A stretch of 64,000 nt of DNA from Candidatus Omnitrophota bacterium (GCA_040753015.1 JBFMHM010000006.1:20467-84466), one strand, 5' to 3'; positions 6,764-63,283 are shown, counted from the stretch's first letter. A program made the numbers and translations. The notes: generated from the sequence alone by a model not told the origin.

Positions 6764-7951
6764 ATGGCAGCTAGGGAAGTATTAGAGGGTATTTATTCCG
6801 TAGGAGTAGTTGATTGGAATACGCGTAATTTTCATGGGCATACTTATACAACAAAGCGAGGCACAACTTATAATGCCTATCTTATTATTGATGATAAAAT
6901 TACGTTGGTTGATACTGTGCTGGGGGCATTCTCTAATGAATTAATCGCAAATATCAGAGAAGTTATTCCTATAGAGAAAATTGATTACATTATTGCAAAT
7001 CATGTTGAGACAGATCATTCTGGCGCTCTGCCGGAATTAATAAAACTTTGCCCAAAGGCAAAAATTTTCGGTACACAGAAATGTAAAGAGGGGTTGGAGA
7101 AAAACTACTATCTTAATTTAGATTTTAATATTGTTAAGACTAATGATAAACTTAATTTAGGCAAGAAAAACTTGATTTTCATTGAAGCTCCTATGATTCA
7201 TTGGCCAGATAGTATGTTTACTTATTGTCCGGAGGAGCAATTGCTTATGCCGAATGATGCCTTCGGCCAGCATTATGCAACAAGCGAACGATTTGATGAT
7301 GAAGTTAGTGATTGTGAGCTTATGGATGAGGCGGCAAAGTATTTTGGTAATATCCTTTGGCCGCTTAGCTCGATTATTATAAATAAAATCGTTGAGATTA
7401 AGAACTTAAATATCCCAATAAAAATGATTGCGCCAAGCCATGGAATTATCTGGCGGAAAGACCCGATGAAGATAATTAATTCATATATTAACTGGGCAAA
7501 AAATACAACCTCTCGTAAAGTTGTAGTTATTTATGAGACGATGTGGGGTGCTACTGAAAAAATGGCAAGAAAGATTGTTGAAAGTTTGGCCAATGCAGGC
7601 CTAACAACAAAACTTTTTGATATAGCAATATCCGATCGTACTGAAGTAATTAAAGAGATGCTTGATGCTAGAGGATTTATTTTTGGTTCATCCACGCACG
7701 ATAATGATATGTTGAGTAATATTGCAGGATTTATGGAATTTTTAAAAGGTTTAAAGCCAAAAAACAGGATAGCTTCTTGTTTTGGTTCATATGGCTGGGC
7801 AGGAGGAGCAGTCAGCTCATTAGAAAAGATTATTAAAGAAGCTGGTATTGAAATACTGCAGCCGTCTTTAGCGATTAAATATATGCCAGATAAAGACGAA
7901 ATTAATAGATGTTATGAATTTGGCAAAGAATTCGCGAAGAAGATAATATAG
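6764..7951 (+). CDS. fprA: flavodiiron protein (FprA / rubredoxin:oxygen oxidoreductase / NO reductase type)
   Basis: Metallo-beta-lactamase-like diiron domain with ANHVETDHSG, followed by a flavodoxin-like domain (VVVIYETMWGATEKMA). Confidence 0.85.
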   Translation: MAAREVLEGIYSVGVVDWNTRNFHGHTYTTKRGTTYNAYLIIDDKITLVDTVLGAFSNELIANIREVIPIEKIDYIIANHVETDHSGALPELIKLCPKAKIFGTQKCKEGLEKNYYLNLDFNIVKTNDKLNLGKKNLIFIEAPMIHWPDSMFTYCPEEQLLMPNDAFGQHYATSERFDDEVSDCELMDEAAKYFGNILWPLSSIIINKIVEIKNLNIPIKMIAPSHGIIWRKDPMKIINSYINWAKNTTSRKVVVIYETMWGATEKMARKIVESLANAGLTTKLFDIAISDRTEVIKEMLDARGFIFGSSTHDNDMLSNIAGFMEFLKGLKPKNRIASCFGSYGWAGGAVSSLEKIIKEAGIEILQPSLAIKYMPDKDEINRCYEFGKEFAKKII

Positions 7952-12201: not shown

Positions 12202-12843
12202 ATGGATAATTTAAGTGAGCATGCCGAAGAAATATTAGAGGCACTGTGGATTCAAGGAGAAGATCGTCCGGGTAAACCCTTAGATTTAGGTATTATTAAG
12301 GACGACCCTGCTTGTCAAGAATTGTCAAAATTGAATTTTATAAAAGTTATCGATGGGCATATTATTTTACTTGATAAAGGTAGGAAGCAGGCAGAATTAG
12401 CAATTAGGCGGCATCGTTTATCCGAGCGGCTAATGACAGATATATTTGATGTTAAGAAAGAAGATGTTGATAGCATAAGCTGTAAATTTGAACACCTTCT
12501 TCATAAAGGCCTAGAAGATAAAGTTTGTGCTTTATTAGGGCATCCTCGTCTTTGCCCTCATGGGAAAAATATTCCAAGGGGAGAATGTTGTAAGAATAAA
12601 AAGAAGCAGCTAGGCGTACTTATTTCACCGCTTGCAGATTTAAGAAAGAACGAAGAAGGAAAAATTGCCTACTTACATACCAAAGACCCATTGGTTATGC
12701 AAAAATTAATGAGCTTGGGTGTCTTGCCGGGATTAGAGATAAAGGTTATGCAGCATTTTCCTTCTTGTGTTTTTAAAATTGGCCATTCGCAGTTTGCGAT
12801 TGATAAAGAATTAGCACTATCCATATATGTAAGGGGTATATAG
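12202..12843 (+). CDS. DtxR/IdeR-family metal-dependent transcriptional repressor with C-terminal SH3-like/FeoA domain
   Basis: Dimerisation/metal-site region RRHRLSERLMTDIF...EHLLHKG...HPRLCPHGKNIP. C-terminal FeoA-like beta domain. Confidence 0.75.
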   Translation: MDNLSEHAEEILEALWIQGEDRPGKPLDLGIIKDDPACQELSKLNFIKVIDGHIILLDKGRKQAELAIRRHRLSERLMTDIFDVKKEDVDSISCKFEHLLHKGLEDKVCALLGHPRLCPHGKNIPRGECCKNKKKQLGVLISPLADLRKNEEGKIAYLHTKDPLVMQKLMSLGVLPGLEIKVMQHFPSCVFKIGHSQFAIDKELALSIYVRGI

Positions 12844-33863: not shown

Positions 33864-34841
33864 ATGAACAGTTATATTCAAAGATTAACAAAAGATGTTT
33901 TGGCTGGTAAGAATATTTTATTTAGTCAAGCAGAGCGATTGATTAATGCGCCTGACGATGATTTACTTTTGCTTTTAGACGGGGCAAATAAGATTCGTAA
34001 TAGATTTAGAGGGAATAAGATTAATCTTTGTTCAATTACAAATGCCAAAAGCGGAAAATGCAGCCAAGATTGTAAGTTTTGTAGTCAATCAAATTTCCAT
34101 AAGACGGATATTAAGACTTATTCCTTGATAAAATTAGATAAAATATTAGCACGCGCAAAAAAATATTACCAAGCAGGTTCGAATAGGTTTTGTATTGTAG
34201 TAAGCGGCAGGGCCTTAACTAAAAATGACTTTGAGACGGTTTGTCATGCAATTGTTCAAATAAAAAAGCGATGGCCAAATATGCGGCGCGATGCATCGTT
34301 AGGGGAGTTAACTTTTGAGATGGCAGAAAAATTAAAATTAGCAGGGTTGCAAAGATACAACCATAATTTAGAAACAGTCGAGGAGTTTTTTCCAAAGATT
34401 TGCACGACTCATAGTTTTGATGATCGTATTAAAACACTAGAAGTTTTAAGAAAAGTTGGTTTACAAATTTGCTCAGGCGGGATATTTGGGCTAGGAGAAA
34501 CAAAAAAGCAACGCGTAGAATTTGCTTATTTTTTAAAAGAACTTAATGTCGACTGTATGCCGCTTAATTTTTTGAACCCGGTTAAAGGGACAGCCTTTGA
34601 AAATAACAAGCCACTAAAGCCATTTGAAATCTTAAAAACAATTGCAATGTTTCGTTTTGTTAATCCAAAAAAGCAAATTCGTATTTGTGGCGGCAGGGAA
34701 AAGAATTTACGTTCCTTGCAATCATTAATATTTTTTTCTGGGTGTGACAGCATAATTTTTGGCGATTATCTAACAACAAAAGGCAATGCATTAAATGATG
34801 ATTTGCAGATGATAAAAGACTTAGGATTAAAAATTCGATAA
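33864..34841 (+). CDS. bioB: biotin synthase
   Basis: CSQDCKFCSQS radical SAM motif. Confidence 0.9.
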   Translation: MNSYIQRLTKDVLAGKNILFSQAERLINAPDDDLLLLLDGANKIRNRFRGNKINLCSITNAKSGKCSQDCKFCSQSNFHKTDIKTYSLIKLDKILARAKKYYQAGSNRFCIVVSGRALTKNDFETVCHAIVQIKKRWPNMRRDASLGELTFEMAEKLKLAGLQRYNHNLETVEEFFPKICTTHSFDDRIKTLEVLRKVGLQICSGGIFGLGETKKQRVEFAYFLKELNVDCMPLNFLNPVKGTAFENNKPLKPFEILKTIAMFRFVNPKKQIRICGGREKNLRSLQSLIFFSGCDSIIFGDYLTTKGNALNDDLQMIKDLGLKIR

Positions 34842-43888: not shown

Positions 43889-44581
43889 ATGCCTGGTTCT
43901 ACGACAAAAAAATTTGAGGCCTTATCAAAAATTAGCCATGCGATAACCTCAGACCTTTATATCGAGGATATTTTAAAATTAATTGTAACAATTACAGCAG
44001 AGACACTTGGTTCAAAAATTTGTTCATTAATGCTTTTAGATGATAAAGGTTATTTACAGATTCGTGCAACACAATCGGTTTCTCAAGATTATAATAAAAA
44101 ACCAGCGCTTAAAGTTGGCGAAGGTATTGCTGGAAAAGTTGCAGAGGAAAATAAACCAATTTCAATTGCTGATTTAGCTCAGTGCAATGAATATAAATAT
44201 AAAGAAATTGCCAAAAAGGAAGGGTTGGCTTCTTTACTTTGCGTGCCTTTATCGGTTAAGAAAAAAGCAATAGGTGTAATTAATCTCTATACTTCAACCC
44301 CGCATAAATTTACAAAAAGCGAGGTGCATCTTTTAACCACAGTTGCAAATCAAGCAGCACTTGTTATTGAAAATACCGAACTTATAGTTAAGACTAAAGT
44401 TATCCAGGAGGAGCTTGAATCGCGAAAGGCTATTGAGCGGGCAAAGGGTATTTTAATGAAAGATCAAAATATCTCAGAAGACGAAGCATACCGTAAAATT
44501 CAAAAATACAGCATGGATTCGCGTAAGTCAATGCGGGAAGTTGCTGAAGCAATAATTATGGCCAAAGAATTAAAAAGTTGA
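43889..44581 (+). CDS. GAF domain - ANTAR domain RNA-binding antiterminator regulator
   Basis: N-terminal GAF (~150 aa). C-terminal ANTAR helical motif ESRKAIERAKGILMKDQNISEDEAYRKIQKYSMDSRKSMREVAEAII. Confidence 0.8.
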   Translation: MPGSTTKKFEALSKISHAITSDLYIEDILKLIVTITAETLGSKICSLMLLDDKGYLQIRATQSVSQDYNKKPALKVGEGIAGKVAEENKPISIADLAQCNEYKYKEIAKKEGLASLLCVPLSVKKKAIGVINLYTSTPHKFTKSEVHLLTTVANQAALVIENTELIVKTKVIQEELESRKAIERAKGILMKDQNISEDEAYRKIQKYSMDSRKSMREVAEAIIMAKELKS

Positions 44582-44606
44582 CGCTAGTACATTTATATGG
44601 TATAAT
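44578..44606 (+). promoter_or_regulatory. strong sigma70-like promoter (extended -10)
   Basis: TTGACG (44578-44583), 17-nt spacer, TGG-TATAAT (44601-44606). It overlaps the stop codon of the GAF-ANTAR gene. Confidence 0.55.
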
Positions 44607-44651
44607 TAAATTGTAAGTAGCACAAGGATTGTGCAGTAGATTTAGCAATGA

Positions 44652-44688
44652 GGCGTGTGCCATTAACTAGGCATGCGCCTTTTTGTTT
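44652..44688 (+). terminator. intrinsic terminator / attenuator in the sigma-factor leader
   Basis: 10-bp stem GGCGTGTGCC/GGCATGCGCC (two G.U pairs), 8-nt loop, then TTTTTGTTT. Confidence 0.55.
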
Positions 44689-44752
44689 GGATAATGGAGT
44701 CCTTTTCGAGAGAAATAATCTCTTAAAAAGGATTTTTATTTTTAGGAGCCAG

Positions 44753-45262
44753 ATGGAATTCAGTTTATTGCTTAATAGGCTTTCAGCGCGTTTGAAAAAA
44801 ATTGCCAGATTTTATGGTACAAGAAGTCATTTTTTAAACAATGACGATCTCTATCAAGAAATGTGTTTACATCTTTGGAATAATTTTAAGGATGGGGTAC
44901 CTCCGGAATTTAATGATGCTTATGTTATCCGTGGGTGTGAATTTCATATTTTAAATTATTTAAGGAAGAATAGAGAAAAAGTAAAATTTGTAAGTATTGA
45001 TGAGCCCATAGATGATAATGCTAATACTATAAAAGATATGTTAGTTGATACAAAAGAACCCCTCAAACAATATGTGAATAGAAAAATAACTATGGAATAT
45101 ATTAGTAATAATGGGTTTTCTAAAATGGAAAAAGATGTTTTTGCTTTTTTGATGGAAGGGTTTACGGTTAGAGAGATTGGTAAGAAAATAGGCGTTTCGC
45201 ATGTTTATGTCATAAAATTAAAAAAGAGCTTAGTTACCAAAACAAAAACTTTGTTACTTTAG
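44753..45262 (+). CDS. ECF-type (sigma-70 family) RNA polymerase sigma factor
   Basis: Region-2-like DDLYQEMCLHLWNNF and C-terminal HTH FTVREIGKKIGVSHVYVIKLKK. Start taken at MEFSLL after an AGGAG RBS. Confidence 0.65.
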   Translation: MEFSLLLNRLSARLKKIARFYGTRSHFLNNDDLYQEMCLHLWNNFKDGVPPEFNDAYVIRGCEFHILNYLRKNREKVKFVSIDEPIDDNANTIKDMLVDTKEPLKQYVNRKITMEYISNNGFSKMEKDVFAFLMEGFTVREIGKKIGVSHVYVIKLKKSLVTKTKTLLL

Positions 45263-45372
45263 TAGCTGTAAGGATTTTTTAAAAGCACATTGATGTAATT
45301 TTAGGACCGAGACGTCCAATTTGTTGCAAAGTGTTGCAATGGGTTGGGCGTTTTTCATTCTATACATAATTT

Positions 45373-46185
45373 ATGGAGAGATATATGTTTAAAAAAATAA
45401 GATTTTCAGTTTTTATTTTTACCATTTTACTTTTGACCTTTACATTTTCTTATGCTACTCCTACAACGCATATTTGGTCGCCGTCAACCGATGTTCAGCC
45501 ATACGGTGTATTTCACTTAACCGCAGATGCTTATGTTCCAGTTGAGCGAGACAGTGCAGGGAACAGGCCTGACACAGTCACAAACTTTGGCTTAACCACA
45601 GGCATTTTACCGTTCGATAAATTTAATGCTGAAGTTGGTTTTGACCATATTGCAGGGTACGGCGCTTTAGATACTTATCCATTTTATTTTAATTGGAAGG
45701 TAGGCACACCAGAAGATGTATTTTCTAAATTTTTTCCCGCACTTGCTTTTGGTGAATATATGATTGGTACAAAACAAAAAAAAGCAACTGGTGTTGTAAG
45801 AACAGGCTACAACATTTTTTATTGGAAAGCAGCAAAGACGTTATCGATAAAGAATTTTTCTTTGGGTAGATTTTCTGCTGGGTATTATCGCGGCGATAAA
45901 GATTTACTTTTGGATGCAAATGGTAATAGCGATAACGATGGTGTACTTTTAGCCTGGGAAAGAATAATGAGCGAGATTTCTGATAAGCTTTGGGTTTGTG
46001 TAGATTATCAGGGAGGAAAAAATAGTTTTGGTGCGATGAACTATGGATTTGCTTGGAAGTTTTCTCCTAATGTAAGCGTACTATTTGGTTATGACGTACC
46101 AAATAACAGCAATCTTGCTAAAACATTTACTGTGCAATGTGATATAGACTTCGATTTGTTTAGTAAGTTTTTAAGAAAAAAATAG
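45373..46185 (+). CDS. hypothetical secreted protein, porin-like, immediately upstream of amtB
   Basis: Signal peptide FSVFIFTILLLTFTFSYA. Beta-rich, Gly/aromatic-rich body. RBS GGAGAG. Confidence 0.4.
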   Translation: MERYMFKKIRFSVFIFTILLLTFTFSYATPTTHIWSPSTDVQPYGVFHLTADAYVPVERDSAGNRPDTVTNFGLTTGILPFDKFNAEVGFDHIAGYGALDTYPFYFNWKVGTPEDVFSKFFPALAFGEYMIGTKQKKATGVVRTGYNIFYWKAAKTLSIKNFSLGRFSAGYYRGDKDLLLDANGNSDNDGVLLAWERIMSEISDKLWVCVDYQGGKNSFGAMNYGFAWKFSPNVSVLFGYDVPNNSNLAKTFTVQCDIDFDLFSKFLRKK

Positions 46186-46209
46186 AAGGATTAAAAGGAG
46201 GTAATATTT

Positions 46210-47439
46210 ATGATAAATACAGGCGATACGGCGTGGATTATGATTTCATCGGCGCTAGTTATGCTGATGACTCCGGGCTTGGCATTTTTTTATGGCGGTA
46301 TGGTTCGGCGTAAAAATATCTTAAATGTTTTGATGCAATGTTTTATTGTTTTATGTGTACTAAGTTTGCAATGGGTTTTGTTTGGATATAGTCTTTCGTT
46401 TGCGCCAAGCAACGGCTTTTGGGGTGGGTTTAGTTGGTTAGGGTTAAAAGGCGTAGGGCTTGAACCTTATGTTGATTATGCTCCGACTATTCCACATCAG
46501 CTTTTCATGGCTTTTCAGATGATGTTTGCCATTATTACACCAGCTTTAATTATTGGTGCGTTTGCAGAGAGAATGAAATTTAGCTCATTCTTAATTTTTA
46601 CAATTATTTGGGCAACATTTGTTTATGCTCCAGTTTGCCATTGGGTTTGGGGTATGGGTGGATTTTTAAGAAAATTAGGTGCGCTTGATTTTGCTGGAGG
46701 GACAGTTGTTCATATTAACGCTGGAATTGCAGCGATAGTTACGGCAATTATGATTGGAAAACGCAAAAATCTAAATGGCCATATGCCTAGTCCACATAAT
46801 CTACCTTTTGTAGTTTTAGGAACCGCACTTCTTTGGTTTGGTTGGTTTGGTTTTAATGCTGGTAGTGCTTTGGCAGCAAATGGTTTAGCGGTAAATGCAT
46901 TTGTTGTTACAAATACTGCTGCAGCAGCTGCGGGTTTAAGTTGGGCACTTTTAGAATGGATTCGTAACGGTAAGCCGACGATGTTTGGTGTTGCATCGGG
47001 TGCGGTTGCGGGATTAGTTGCAATTACTCCGGCTGCGGGTTTTGTGAGCGTAATTTCAGCAATAATTATTGGTTTGTTGGTTAGTGTATTTTGTTTTATT
47101 GCTGTTAGTTTTATTAAACCAAAACTTGGCTACGATGATTCTTTAGATGCATTTGGTGTTCACTGTGTTGGCGGAATTTGGGGGGCGCTTGCAACTGGTT
47201 TATTTGCCTCAAAGGTTGTGAATAGCGCCGGAAGTGATGGTTTATTTTTTGGCAACCCAAAGCAATTTTTCGTTCAAGCCTTAACGGTGTTAATTACAAT
47301 TGTATATACTGCAATAGTGACAGCGGTTATTTATAAAATTGTAGATGTCATATTTGGGATAAGAGTCACTGAAAAAGAAGAACTTATGGGTCTTGATTTA
47401 ACCCAACACAGAGAAAGGGCATATACGGTGTTAGAATGA
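46210..47439 (+). CDS. amtB: ammonium transporter
   Basis: Amt signature [16 protein letters not shown] and twin-His region. Confidence 0.9.
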
Positions 47440-47777
47440 AACTAATTATTGCAATTATCCAACCATACAAATTAGAAGAAGTAAAAGAGGCTCTATACAG
47501 CGCTGATATTAATCTAATTACGGTAAGCGAAGTATTAGGCCATGGCAGGCAAAAAGGTGTAACCGAAGTTTATCGCGGCCATAAAGAAACCGGTAATTTA
47601 CTTCGCAAAATTCGCCTAGAGATTACCGTAAATGAAGAATTTGTTGAGCCAACAATAAAAGCAATTATAAAAGGCGCAAAAACTGGTGAAACAGGTGATG
47701 GAAAGATCTTCGTGTTAGACTTAAAAGAATGTGTGAGGATTAGGACAGAGGAGCGCGGCCCAGTTGCTATAGGGTAA
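47436..47777 (+). CDS. glnK: nitrogen regulatory protein P-II
   Basis: [20 protein letters not shown]..., T-loop RGHKETG. 4-nt overlap with amtB. Confidence 0.9.
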
Positions 47778-49420: not shown

Positions 49421-49696
49421 TTTTAACCTCCAATTTTTAAGACAAAAATATTACCTTCGACATTTTGACAGCTTTGTCTTGTTATCGATATGTGTACAGC
49501 ACTACTTTGTGCTGGTGGGTATATTTAACATTGCCTACAAATTATGCAAAAAATGCTCAATAAGTAGGCGATTAATGAAAAGTATAGAATAAATTTTTGA
49601 TTTTGTAAAGTTTTTTTTAATTTTGTTACCAACTAGGTAAAATTATTACTTTTATAATTAGTGCCTGAAAAATAAGCACACTGAAAAATAATGAAC

Positions 49697-49731
49697 AGGG
49701 GTGTTCTTTTTATAAGAATACCTCTTTTTTT
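49697..49731 (+). terminator. intrinsic terminator / attenuator in the glnN leader
   Basis: Stem 49700-49708 GGTGTTCTT pairs with 49714-49722 AAGAATACC (one G.U). 5-nt loop, then a T-run. Lies ~45 nt upstream of the glnN RBS. Confidence 0.5.
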
Positions 49732-49777
49732 ATTTGGAGGTTATGGTAAAATATTTAATTATAAATTAGGAGGTTAT

Positions 49778-51983: not shown

Positions 51984-52026
51984 AAAAGCGCCCCGATGCG
52001 TATATTACTATCGGGGCGCTTTTTTA
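51984..52026 (+). terminator. intrinsic terminator after glnN
   Basis: 11-bp stem AGCGCCCCGAT/ATCGGGGCGCT, 12-nt loop, TTTTTT. Confidence 0.8.
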
Positions 52027-52104: not shown

Positions 52105-53334
52105 ATGGATAAAAGGGTTCTCTATAAAGATTTATGGGATGAATTATCTAAAGATAAGTCTTTGATTATGTTGGCTGGCCCGCGCCAGGCGGGTAAAACT
52201 ACTTTTGCCAAAAGTATTGTAGCAAAAGATTTTTTAGATACTATTTATCTCAATTGGGATATTTCTGCAGATAAAAAACGGCTTATTGAAGACCCCGAAT
52301 TTTTTTCTAAGGAATCTCGTAGTAGTGTTTCTTCGCGCCCACTGGTTATTCTTGATGAAATTCATAAATATCGCGATTGGAAAAATTACCTTAAAGGTAT
52401 TTACGATCAATTTGCCACTAACTATCAGTTTCTTGTTACAGGTAGCGGCCGGTTGGAATTTTCTCGTAAAGCTGGTGACTCACTTGCTGGCAGGTTTCTT
52501 AAATTTCATATTTTTCCTTTAACACTTGGCGAGCTTTTTTATAAGAGAAGAGAGTTAAAAGACTTTATTGGTAATCCATTGAAAGAGTTTGAAGGCCATT
52601 CAGTTAAAACAACAGCTAAGGCCTTCCATCTACTATGGGAATTAAGCGGTTTTCCAGAACCTTTTCTAAAAGGGAAGAAGGCATTTTGGTCTGCTTGGTC
52701 TAGCACATATGGCCAACAAATAGTTAGGGATGATTTAAGGACGATTGCAGATATACGTAATCTTGACATGATTGAGACGCTTTTTGCGCTTGTGCCGGGA
52801 AGAGTGGGAAGCCCCATGTCGATGAATAATTTGGCAGGTGATCTTCAGGTAGCTTTTGATACTGTGAAAAATTGGTTATTACTCTTTGATTCATTTTATC
52901 TTACATTTCGTCTTTCTCCTTGGACATCGAAGCTGTCAAGAAGTATTCTTAAAGAGAAAAAAATATATCTTTTTAATTTCCCAGTTATCGAAGATGAAGG
53001 CAGCCGGTTTGAAAACTTGGTTGCTTTAGAATTATTCAGGGCAATTGAGACTTGGAATGACCGCGGTTTTGGTAATTTTACGTTGCACTATCTTAGAAAT
53101 AAAGATAAGCAGGAAGTCGATTTCCTTTTAGCAAAAAATAACCACCCGTTTCTTTTAATTGAAACAAAACTTTCCGATGAAACTTCTGCTTCAAATTTAT
53201 TGTTTTTTCAGAATTTTTTTAATATTCCTGCTGTACAACTTGTTAAAAAAGAAGGAGTAAAAAAAGTTTTTAGAAATGGCTTAAATAATGTTTTGGTCGT
53301 AACTGCGCACATGTGGCTTGCTGCGTTGCCTTAA
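52105..53334 (+). CDS. AAA+ ATPase, COG1373-like (DUF4143-like C-terminal region)
   Basis: Walker A LAGPRQAGKTT, Walker B VILDEIH, ~410 aa. Confidence 0.65.
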   Translation: MDKRVLYKDLWDELSKDKSLIMLAGPRQAGKTTFAKSIVAKDFLDTIYLNWDISADKKRLIEDPEFFSKESRSSVSSRPLVILDEIHKYRDWKNYLKGIYDQFATNYQFLVTGSGRLEFSRKAGDSLAGRFLKFHIFPLTLGELFYKRRELKDFIGNPLKEFEGHSVKTTAKAFHLLWELSGFPEPFLKGKKAFWSAWSSTYGQQIVRDDLRTIADIRNLDMIETLFALVPGRVGSPMSMNNLAGDLQVAFDTVKNWLLLFDSFYLTFRLSPWTSKLSRSILKEKKIYLFNFPVIEDEGSRFENLVALELFRAIETWNDRGFGNFTLHYLRNKDKQEVDFLLAKNNHPFLLIETKLSDETSASNLLFFQNFFNIPAVQLVKKEGVKKVFRNGLNNVLVVTAHMWLAALP

Positions 53335-53348
53335 TTAGTCAAAAGTAG

Positions 53349-53386
53349 CGCTCCGATTGTGCTTTGCTCATCGGGGGCTCTTTTTA
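53349..53386 (+). terminator. weak intrinsic terminator candidate
   Basis: 7-bp stem CTCCGAT/ATCGGGG (one U.G) followed by CTCTTTTT. Confidence 0.35.
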
Positions 53387-55117: not shown

Positions 55118-55291
55118 TTTTGTTACCATATTATATTAATTTTTACTTATAATAATAGGCACGCGGTAGTGCTTATTATATAGAAATTTAACAAAGACGT
55201 TCGTTGTGGTATATAAAGCGCCATGATGAACGTTTTTTTATTGGGAACAATTGATTAAAAGTTAGGCAGAGTTTGCTAAAAAATTATACAT

Positions 55292-60242: not shown

Positions 60243-63283
<3,041 letters not shown>

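Follow-up and report, generated by a model that had tools for sequence, protein, structure and literature searches.

Two putative ANTAR-type attenuators in tandem ahead of a small sigma-factor gene at a nitrogen-assimilation cluster of Candidatus Omnitrophota

The leader between the GAF-ANTAR and sigma-factor genes

The stretch of DNA analysed here (64,000 nucleotides (nt) from Candidatus Omnitrophota bacterium, GCA_040753015.1 JBFMHM010000006.1:20467-84466; hereafter the window) encodes proteins whose closest database relatives are annotated as Candidatus Omnitrophota. Within it, a gene for a regulator that combines a GAF and an ANTAR domain is followed, after a spacer of 172 nt, by a gene for a small sigma factor, and this spacer is the subject of the present work. 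An earlier note on the same DNA had read it as a leader with one terminator, controlled by the GAF-ANTAR protein. The sigma leader heads a nitrogen-assimilation supercluster of ~20 kb, in which the sigma gene is followed by a porin-like gene, amtB and glnK, then by a gltB-like gene of 529 amino acids (aa) on the opposite strand and glnN, and beyond glnN by an AAA_14/DUF4143 gene, nadE, gltB (1554 aa), gltD and pyrG. The porin-like gene, amtB, glnK and glnN had already been named in the earlier note and were confirmed, amtB and glnK by Pfam (Ammonium_transp, E 8e-136, and P-II, E 3e-27, respectively); a Pfam search of the window's porin-like gene gave no match, and its homologue in the related contig L082 carries Gcw_chp. 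The features of the leader and its immediate surroundings are listed below, where R1 and R2 are the covariance models described in the next section.

43889-44581, plus strand: GAF-ANTAR one-component regulator of 230 aa, presumed antiterminator (Pfam GAF_2 and ANTAR)
44578-44606, plus strand: class I (sigma70-type) promoter TTGACG-17-TGgTATAAT, overlapping the TGA stop codon of the GAF-ANTAR gene
44620-44634, plus strand: P1 hairpin GCAC[AAGGAUU]GUGC, with A1 and G4 in the loop (sequence and R1 model)
44645-44654, plus strand: P2 mini-hairpin GC[AAUGAG]GC, separated from P1 by a 10-nt linker (read from the sequence)
44650-44688, plus strand: intrinsic terminator 1, stem 44650-44681, then a U-run
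44689-44702, plus strand: second hexaloop hairpin (P2') GGAU[AAUGGA]GUCC, 4 base pairs (bp), with A1 and G4 (read from the sequence)
44699-44743, plus strand: intrinsic terminator 2, A+U-rich stem, then UUUUUAUUUUU (R2 model and fold)
44753-45262, plus strand: small sigma-70-family factor of 169 aa with sigma2 and sigma4, ECF-like, i.e. resembling extracytoplasmic function factors (TIGR02937, homologues, AlphaFold2 (AF2) model and Foldseek)
45373-47777, plus strand: operon that follows sigma, made up of the porin-like gene, amtB and glnK (Pfam for the last two)

The promoter consists of TTGACG (44578-44583), a 17-nt spacer that carries TGg, and TATAAT (44601-44606); it scores 11/12 with an extended -10 element and is the top site of the 12 kb scanned (40-52 kb of the window). 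Its position over the stop codon, the end of the GAF-ANTAR gene at 44581 and the small hairpin at 44620-44634 were all as the earlier note had stated, and the hairpin proved to be the conserved element P1. The strong terminator reported there was likewise recovered as terminator 1, which has 12 pairs, seven of them G-C, followed by UUUUUGUUU, and is the best terminator-like site of the 12 kb scanned. It is overlapped by P2, the 3' half of which (44650-44654) lies within the 5' arm of the terminator (44650-44661) and would thus be a putative antiterminator element; P2 itself stands at a GCAAUGAGGC box that is conserved in many sigma leaders.

The idea of a single attenuator did not survive, as the leader contains two in tandem. 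Directly after the first U-run lies P2', a canonical hexaloop hairpin that the earlier note had overlooked (the loop of P1, for its part, is not canonical, having 7 nt), and the GUCC of P2' (44699-44702) opens terminator 2, whose end is separated from the sigma ATG by 9 nt, ribosome-binding site included. Folding of the sigma leader, one of the checks that the note had proposed, gave -50.7 kcal/mol (z = -6.1, with 0 of 200 shuffles as stable) and the hairpins P1 and P2 can be read in its sequence. Generic counts in the region were near chance, both for promoters (53 vs 42.6 expected) and for terminators (11 vs 8.5 expected); the leader sites rise above chance because they are conserved in related loci.

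Conservation of the leader as an RNA family

The comparison set comprised 162 related loci (L001-L162), i.e. 80 genome loci centred on GAF-ANTAR homologues, 80 metagenome loci centred on sigma homologues, and the two contigs nearest to the window (L081 and L082). In these, the 220 nt upstream of 84 sigma starts share one common architecture. The promoter TTGACA-17-TGnTAnnnT is followed by aGCAC[ARRGUNN]GUGCu (P1), by terminator 1 with its overlapping P2 (..CAAWG(N)GGCGUUC-loop-GAACGCC-U-run), by a second unit GGAU[AAUGAN]GUCC-stem-loop-GGAC-U-run and, in some leaders, by a third unit. A promoter scoring at least 9/12 lies within 70 nt upstream of P1 in 59/62 sigma leaders, mostly with 9-16 nt between the -10 element and P1, and nearly all modules end in a G+C-rich stem and a U-run. 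L082 resembles the window in having promoter, P1, attenuator 1 and attenuator 2 ahead of sigma. L081 is the closest relative, its GAF-ANTAR protein being 83% identical to that of the window; it keeps the gene order AsnC-AAT-FER4-GAF-ANTAR-leader-sigma, and its leader reads TTGACA-17-TATATT, then GCACAAGGUUUGUGC, then GAC[AAAGGU]GUU overlapping the terminator.

We built covariance models of the two units: R1 (P1 and terminator 1) from 41 segments including that of the window, and R2 (the second attenuator) from 22 sequences without it. The R1 search space of 1.27 Mb, which also served for the class II motif described below, was split into 401 kb (the window and the sigma-centred loci L081-L162) and 873 kb (the GAF-ANTAR loci), and gave 152 and 55 matches at E ≤ 0.01, respectively. 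The search for similar dual-hairpin leaders that the earlier note had called for thus returned 207 matches in related loci, and of the 205 placed in stored alignments 200 lie on the gene strand and 5 on the opposite strand. Among metagenome sigma loci with at least 260 nt upstream, R1 was found in 57/66, R2 in 47/66 and both in 43/66. R2 matched the window at 44688-44743 with 49.8 bits (E 3.1e-8); in the sigma loci it gave 51 matches, every one of them on the gene strand and immediately ahead of sigma.

The stems covary. In the 150-row alignment of R1 from sigma loci (A4), which was fitted to the model and so favours pairing, 93.5% of cells pair, 13/14 pairs have changes on both sides, and there are 147 compensatory cells compared with 32 in shuffles; when partner columns were slid as a control, pairing fell to 29-53%. 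All 6 pairs of P1 show double changes, and the homologous stem of terminator 1 is 96.6% paired with compensatory changes in 7/8 pairs. The R2 terminator is 94% paired, with 10/15 pairs compensatory. The loops are conserved as well. In P1, 125/127 matches have G4 and 126/127 have a purine at position 1 (A 93 times, G 33 times), the loop being 6 nt long in 45 matches and 7 nt long in 82. P2 loops have 6-8 nt, and A1 holds in P2 as it does in P2', where 45 distinct homologues have A1 in 41/45, A2 in 43/45 and G4 in 45/45. A P2-type hairpin (A1 and G4, a 6-8 nt loop and at least 3 bp) with its 3' arm inside the 5' arm of the terminator occurs in 76% of 171 distinct R1 matches, compared with 25% when the upstream 16 nt were shuffled.

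Several simpler approaches were discarded. A search for the motif GGAC-N6-GUCC proved too restrictive: besides the window's porin-leader site it recovered 13 true sites from related loci, but it picked up coding-region noise and missed the window's own sigma leader. Simple terminator and hexaloop scanners were unreliable (169 'terminators' on one strand is too permissive), and their counts were not used, the covariance models replacing them; MAFFT misplaced P1 hexaloop variants, and the alignment was redone against the model. Weak R1 matches on the minus strand of the window (62955-63007, which is antisense inside pyrG, 45215-45258, 34498-34546 and 12453-12534) were rejected as spurious.

We therefore read the spacer between the GAF-ANTAR and sigma genes as a transcribed leader with two tandem ANTAR-type attenuators that would be relieved by a GAF-ANTAR protein, and on the sequence and comparative evidence we give this reading a probability of roughly two in three. 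Several points weigh against it. The window's own R1 score (44616-44688, 46.3 bits) is partly circular, because the window is among the 41 seed sequences of that model. In the window P2 of attenuator 1 has only 2 bp, and the loop of P1 has 7 nt instead of 6. A P1 is missing from the second attenuator, which makes its engagement by a dimer harder to picture; in addition the stem of P2', although 97.8% pairable, is invariant, so that it gains nothing from covariation and its pairing is argued by analogy. There is no curated Rfam family that covers the sigma leader element and could serve for comparison: Rfam gave zero matches over the whole window at the gathering threshold and, for 44500-45450 at E ≤ 10, chance-level sub-threshold matches only (e.g. 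trpB, drum and PyrR). Two further points concern the regulator and its targets. Elsewhere, the clade of GAF-ANTAR proteins beside which that of the window is placed (the FER4-linked clade, see below) sits in an operon that runs straight into nadE without an adjacent leader, which means that another paralogue elsewhere in the genome could be the true regulator. Glutamine-consuming carB and pyrG, as well as gdhA, share the leader type with amtB and glutamine synthetase, a mixed gene set that is hard to fit to a simple 'nitrogen-limitation ON' direction of response and hints that paralogues may respond differently.

The proteins, a putative second promoter class and the other leaders

The GAF-ANTAR protein matches Pfam GAF_2 over residues 25-161 (E 6.8e-24, 85 bits) and ANTAR (PF03861) over residues 173-223 (E 1.5e-23, 82.7 bits vs a cut-off of 27.3; profile positions 4-54 of 54). 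The ANTAR domain is complete, and the N-terminal GAF domain is fused to it via a coiled-coil helix, with a linker (...IENTELIVKTKVIQEELESRK...) that is conserved across homologues. These are numerous (7061 matches, ~70% identity across Omnitrophota), and in the 80 GAF-ANTAR loci the gene is syntenic with nitrogen genes throughout the phylum. Among NCBIfam families the GAF domain scores best against the N-terminal GAF domains of PtsP (EI-Ntr; 70 bits) and NifA (56 bits), and GAF domains of PtsP and NifA respond to glutamine and 2-oxoglutarate. Nitrogen status, the input suggested by the earlier note, is therefore plausible, since the content of the regulon points to nitrogen and the GAF domain resembles those of PtsP and NifA.

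In a neighbour-joining tree of 100 GAF-ANTAR proteins we distinguish sigma-adjacent, FER4-linked, nadE-linked and gltB-like-linked clades, the last with R1 upstream; the proteins of the window and L081 are placed beside the FER4-linked clade. In that clade (L001-L033; e.g. L032, Ca. Velamenicoccus archaeovorus LiM, 7001-7710) there is next to no spacing between the GAF-ANTAR gene and the downstream nadE, which encodes a glutamine-dependent NAD synthetase; the operon also encodes a 4Fe-4S protein, and an aminotransferase is found elsewhere in the locus. GAF-ANTAR genes adjoin leaders with P1, P2 and terminator in several clades. The gltB-like-linked clade is the one most often preceded by R1, with promoter and complete leader at L026:6767-6833, L061:6780-6852, L019:6755-6818 and L065:6660-6936 and in ~28 more cases. 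The promoters ahead of these leaders are sigma70-type in most and GTTACC-N15-TTACTT in some. A leader in this position implies positive autoregulation of the antiterminator. The window's own GAF-ANTAR gene is without one, following the FER4 gene after a gap of 12 nt.

The start of the sigma gene at 44753 stood up to comparison: AGGAG lies ahead of the ATG, and in an alignment with 25 homologues the MEF/MDF N-termini coincide. The description of the protein as ECF-type held for its architecture and fold only. Its alignment to TIGR02937 is full-length but scores 38.1 bits, below the cut-off of 42.9, and Pfam Sigma70_r2 (PF04542) scores 22.1 bits, below the cut-off of 24; among the homologues, Sigma70_r2 is found in 26/26 (E ≤ 0.01) and a GerE helix-turn-helix in 24/26. 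In the AF2 model, residues 1-76 and 105-168 form helical domains (pLDDT 77-91) with a disordered linker between them, and all of the listed top-50 Foldseek matches in the PDB are sigma factors, including the ECF factors SigH and SigL of Mycobacterium tuberculosis as well as CnrH and SigK. Owing to the flexible connection of the two domains, the TM-scores are low (0.28-0.37). No anti-sigma gene adjoins sigma among the neighbours in the loci (GAF-ANTAR, gltB-like or nadE upstream; porin or amtB downstream), and the promoter of the sigma gene is sigma70-type in 60/77 cases. 'ECF-like' is therefore fair for the architecture, while membership of the ECF group is not established, because there is neither an anti-sigma neighbour nor a promoter of the factor's own type. 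We also observed that the family has invariant Cys62 and His150 and a near-invariant His65 (alignment A2), and an invariant SHV motif (GISHVMV) in the helix-turn-helix of sigma4; these features are untypical of sigma-70 and may relate to promoter specificity or to a cofactor.

On the same strand as sigma, (porin)-amtB-glnK follows in almost all loci, and R1 leaders that are not ahead of sigma mostly lack TTGACA/TATAAT, having GGTTACC-N15-TTACTT upstream instead. The exact motif GTTACC-N15-TTACTT (class II) occurs three times in the window compared with 0.00 expected, in the porin (45233), glnN (49625) and gltB (55122) leaders, and in the full search space it occurs 113 times on the gene strand and 0 times on the opposite strand. 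Of the 113 copies, 75 coincide with the 3' end of a sigma gene or lie immediately beyond it (the motif stands at the end of the sigma gene in 71/79), and 71/113 copies have an R1 match at most 120 nt downstream. At the sigma 3' end GGTTACCAAA encodes a conserved ..KVTK.. C-terminus. That the motif is a by-product of this conserved C-terminus was nevertheless rejected, because 38/113 copies, two of them in the window, are away from any sigma gene end. Among the GAF-ANTAR-seeded loci the motif is present in 8/9 with sigma vs 5/71 without (Fisher p = 4e-7), a comparison confounded by shared neighbourhood. The simplest reading of these associations is that class II is a candidate promoter read by the co-encoded sigma factor; alternatively it could be a transcription-factor site or the promoter of another sigma factor. 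The sigma cascade proposed by the earlier note thereby gains a candidate, i.e. a motif linked both to the sigma gene and to nitrogen operons. Separately, the porin leaders of several loci (L089:1850-1890, L083:1215-1250, L096, L103, L140 and L142) share a conserved hairpin, GUAGGGGAGGGUUUAAAACCCUCCCCUAC, that is rich in G+C and stands after the class II motif and before the attenuator; it is absent from the window.

The remaining features of the window that belong to this system are the following.

45233-45259, plus strand: promoter-like class II motif (GTTACC-N15-TTACTT) at the head of the porin-amtB-glnK leader, within the 3'-terminal part of the sigma gene
45304-45358, plus strand: porin-leader attenuator, consisting of GGAC[CGAGAC]GUCC (45304-45317) and a long U-tailed terminator (45310-45353) that it overlaps
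49467-49609, minus strand: leader of the gltB-like gene (529 aa), with promoter TTTACA-17-TATACT (R1 17.9 bits, E 0.044)
49625-49735, plus strand: glnN leader, class II motif (49625-49651) and GAAC[AGGGGU]GUUC (49693-49706), which overlaps a terminator (49697-49725) with a U-run
55122-55243, plus strand: gltB-gltD-pyrG leader, class II motif (55122-55148) and terminator (55194-55236) with a U-run (sequence and motif)

The porin-leader attenuator scores 20.3 bits with R2 (E 0.031), and its P1 is degenerate (AC[AUUGAU]GU, 45287-45296). The glnN leader scores 19.1 bits with R1 (E 0.023), the real start of glnN being at ~49779. In the gltB-gltD-pyrG leader, P1 is GCAC[GCGGUA]GUGC (55159-55172) and P2 is AAC[AAAGAC]GUU (55190-55201), overlapping the terminator; R1 gives 14 bits (E 0.39) and R2 18.3 bits (E 0.08). 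The gltB-like leader on the minus strand has hexaloop hairpins of textbook form, P1 AGCAC[AAAGUA]GUGCU (49513-49498) and P2 GAC[AAAGCU]GUC (49478-49467); no canonical U-tailed terminator was found in it, and a long helix (AAGACAAA...UUUGUCUU) stops 8 nt before the ribosome-binding site, so that a translational or otherwise different mode of ANTAR control could operate there.

Across the search space, the next gene after an R1 match is sigma (82), GAF-ANTAR (32), porin (15), amtB (12), gltB-like (4) or glnK (4), and the remainder include glutamine synthetase (GS) type I, glutamate dehydrogenase, CarB, CTP synthase, GltB and an amino-acid-permease-PII fusion. Judged from these genes, the module of P1, P2 and terminator looks like a global nitrogen regulon of the Omnitrophota and relatives sampled. 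The fusion (L077:10319-12193, 624 aa) is an amino-acid permease with a C-terminal PII domain (AA_permease and P-II), and is an unusual combination of transporter and PII; its gene follows sigma and is headed by a class II motif together with an R1 leader. Between the 529-aa gltB-like gene and the sigma/amtB attenuator of several loci (L019:9420-9610, L016:9440-9650, L023, L031, L041 and L060) we noticed a conserved small Cys-rich open reading frame, ~55-70 aa by eye, that was not found in the window; it begins M-x-x-K-G-L-C-S-T-C...C-V/I-F...L-E/Q-C-E-E-F, and has its own GGGAGG ribosome-binding site. Its product may bind a metal or an Fe-S cluster and act as a small partner of the archaeal-type glutamate synthase.

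Two terminators in the window's cluster are of the ordinary kind. At the 3' end of glnN (51988-52020) a strong plain terminator, GCGCCCCGAU...AUCGGGGCGC then UUUUUUAUU, is without a hexaloop element and is an internal contrast to the regulated leader terminators. The hairpin at 53347-53385, considered as a regulated terminator upstream of nadE, was rejected: it belongs to the AAA_14 gene as a plain terminator and lacks a hexaloop element. That gene, an AAA_14/DUF4143 ATPase at 52105-53334, breaks the nitrogen cluster between glnN and nadE and looks like an unrelated insertion.

Proposed mechanism, alternatives and known systems

In the mechanism that we propose, the sigma70-type promoter over the GAF-ANTAR stop codon would start transcription ~6-13 nt upstream of P1, and by default RNA polymerase would halt at terminator 1 or terminator 2. 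An active and presumably dimeric GAF-ANTAR protein would bind the A-N-N-G loops of P1 and P2 and then GGAU[AAUGGA]GUCC. The mini-hairpins held in this way share sequence with the terminators (the 3' half of the former with the 5' arm of the latter) and would block terminator formation and allow read-through into sigma and towards porin-amtB-glnK. The GAF domain most likely reads nitrogen status via glutamine or 2-oxoglutarate. The same module would gate porin-amtB-glnK, glnN and gltB-gltD-pyrG in the window and, elsewhere, glnA, gdhA, carB and many GAF-ANTAR genes.

The associations also suggest, more tentatively and at somewhat less than even odds, a two-tier feed-forward circuit, in which GAF-ANTAR proteins relieve the two or three attenuators ahead of sigma, and sigma drives class II promoters whose transcripts are again gated by attenuators. 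In the first tier, sigma would be made from a constitutive sigma70-type promoter once the tandem attenuators are relieved, several GAF-ANTAR proteins being autoregulated. In the second, sigma would drive GGTTACC-N15-TTACTT ahead of porin-amtB-glnK, glnA/glnN and gltB-gltD-pyrG, the first copy being embedded in sigma's own 3' codons (..K-V-T-K..). Such a circuit would have AND logic, i.e. initiation and elongation would both be conditional on the same signal.

We considered three other explanations of the leader. The one we find hardly credible is that the terminators are ordinary tandem terminators of the AAT-FER4-GAF-ANTAR operon, that sigma is transcribed from an unregulated promoter, and that the loop pattern is incidental. 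Both terminators do lie directly 3' of the GAF-ANTAR stop codon and would also halt transcripts from upstream, and a weak promoter-like site (TAGGCA-16-GATAAT, 9/12) is present at 44668-44695; however, this site overlaps terminator 1 and is still ahead of terminator 2, whereas the strong promoter is upstream of the terminators, not after them, and is conserved there. The scenario of a plain terminator with a separate promoter downstream, which the earlier note had named as its own refutation, fails because no promoter fits in the 9 nt between the last U-run and the ATG. Moreover, the same module is found far from GAF-ANTAR 3' ends, ahead of glnA, gltB, gdhA and carB, its loop positions are conserved, and P1 covaries although it has no terminator function. 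Only slightly less improbable is a mainly post-transcriptional role of the hairpins, in mRNA stability, processing or translation. An effect on translation is reported for actinobacterial ANTAR RNAs (10.1101/660928), the window's gltB-like leader has P1 and P2 with a helix near its ribosome-binding site in place of a U-tailed terminator, and terminator 2 ends right at the sigma ribosome-binding site. Against this, the modules with few exceptions have the stem and U-run typical of intrinsic terminators, and P2 overlaps the terminator arm, not the ribosome-binding site.

A more serious alternative, which we still consider unlikely, is that the attenuator is real but is read by something else: by another GAF-ANTAR paralogue, by another ANTAR or RNA-binding protein, or by a small ligand in the manner of a riboswitch. 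The sampled Omnitrophota loci contain at least four GAF-ANTAR clades, with two copies in several loci, the window's copy falls beside the clade of FER4/nadE operons that lacks adjacent leaders, and R1 most often precedes members of the gltB-like-linked clade. On the other hand, the loops and the overlap architecture resemble the signature of ANTAR targets and match the experimentally bound GnfR site, and two short hairpins without an obvious ligand pocket, with no Rfam riboswitch match, do not look like a riboswitch. Only one GAF-ANTAR gene is visible in the 64 kb and it abuts the leader, an arrangement of gene, leader and sigma that L081 keeps; a GAF-ANTAR gene followed directly by an R1 leader and sigma also recurs in another clade (L114-116, L133 and L139). 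In L153 the two genes are adjacent and no R1 match is present. We continue to favour relief of the tandem attenuators by a GAF-ANTAR protein, which in the window may be the one encoded next to them.

If this reading is correct, the GAF-ANTAR family gains a test case with clear predicted RNA targets and an obvious physiological read-out, and the leaders suggest how an uncultured phylum controls nitrogen assimilation. In the loci examined there are no recognisable sigma54 (-24/-12) promoters at nitrogen operons, which have sigma70-type promoters or GTTACC-N15-TTACTT instead. It would be unusual for a sigma factor to be controlled through transcription attenuation by two or three serial switches and not through an anti-sigma factor, and likewise for a candidate cognate promoter to lie inside sigma's own C-terminal codons. 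The predicted circuit is compact (a 230-aa protein, an RNA of ~70 nt, a 169-aa sigma factor and a 27-bp promoter); its reconstruction in vitro or in E. coli is conceivable, as is its use as a small nitrogen-responsive part. Nitrogen regulons in Omnitrophota metagenomes can be annotated directly with R1, R2 and the class II motif.

Among known systems, the tandem arrangement recalls tandem riboswitches and attenuators (glycine, TPP and T-box), in which two or three complete switches also stand in series in one leader; their effector is a metabolite or tRNA, whereas here it is presumed to be a protein. Switches in series should sharpen the response and lower leakiness. The sigma factor resembles ECF (group 4) factors in its size (~170 aa), in having sigma2 and sigma4 only, and in its candidate bipartite promoter with fixed spacing. 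It differs in that it has no anti-sigma neighbour, has a sigma70-type promoter instead of an autoregulated one, and is apparently controlled by attenuation. The usual ECF promoter pattern is GGAAC / CGTC, from which the candidate GGTTACC (-35) / TTACTT (-10) differs. Other ANTAR proteins, i.e. NasR (NIT-ANTAR) at nasF, NasT (receiver-ANTAR) at nirBD and AmiR in the amiE leader, relieve leader terminators. They are comparable in being one-component (NasR) or partner-controlled ANTAR proteins for nitrogen-source genes, but each serves one operon and one nitrogen source, not a core assimilation regulon, and to our knowledge none has a sigma factor among its targets.

By the published definition an ANTAR target comprises two short hairpins, each with a hexaloop that has A1 and G4, and the second of them overlaps a terminator (PMC3369931). 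In the same 2012 survey most targets stood at nitrogen genes (PII, amtB, glutamate synthase and glutamine synthetase), with examples predicted in Desulfotomaculum and Pelobacter; at that time no PAS- or GAF-ANTAR protein had been characterised, and a 2025 review mentions GAF-ANTAR merely as an architecture. The Omnitrophota leaders share with those of EutV/EutW in Enterococcus faecalis (PMC3369931; structure PMC8934654) the P1 and P2 hairpins, mostly with A1 and G4, the 3' half of P2 within the terminator, and the presence of several attenuators per gene cluster. They depart from that model in the P1 loop, which often has 7 nt and sometimes G at position 1, in P2 loops of 6-8 nt, in a second sigma attenuator without P1, and in a sensor that is a GAF and not a receiver domain.

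The nearest relative in function is GnfK/GnfR of Geobacter sulfurreducens, an ANTAR response regulator system that controls nifH, nifEN, glnK and amtB by antitermination, GnfR binding CAGGCAANGGCGCC at the foot of premature terminators in the nifH, glnK and amtB leaders (PMC2995071). The site CAGGCAANGGCGCC can be read as GGC[AANGGC]GCC, whose loop equals that of the Omnitrophota P2 (GGAC[AAAGGC]GUUC and variants), and both systems have terminators in nitrogen-gene leaders, including those of glnK and amtB, and a regulon of several operons. GnfR differs in being a receiver-ANTAR protein that is phosphorylated by a kinase and is under sigma54/GnfM control, whereas in Omnitrophota GAF is fused directly to ANTAR, the attenuators are in tandem, a sigma factor is a target and many copies are apparently autoregulated. 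In the literature searched, we found nothing joining ANTAR with Omnitrophota, Omnitrophica or Velamenicoccus, and among the papers on the ANTAR domain retrieved there, none that also names an ECF sigma factor. The earlier note had called the combination little described, which fits the link to sigma but not ANTAR control of nitrogen genes, which is well described. The proposed mechanism is thus of a known kind, because the sites closely resemble ANTAR targets and the GnfR site, and antitermination of nitrogen genes by ANTAR proteins is known already; what would be new are the one-component GAF form, the tandem gating of a sigma factor, the two-tier circuit, the apparent autoregulation and the linked second promoter class.

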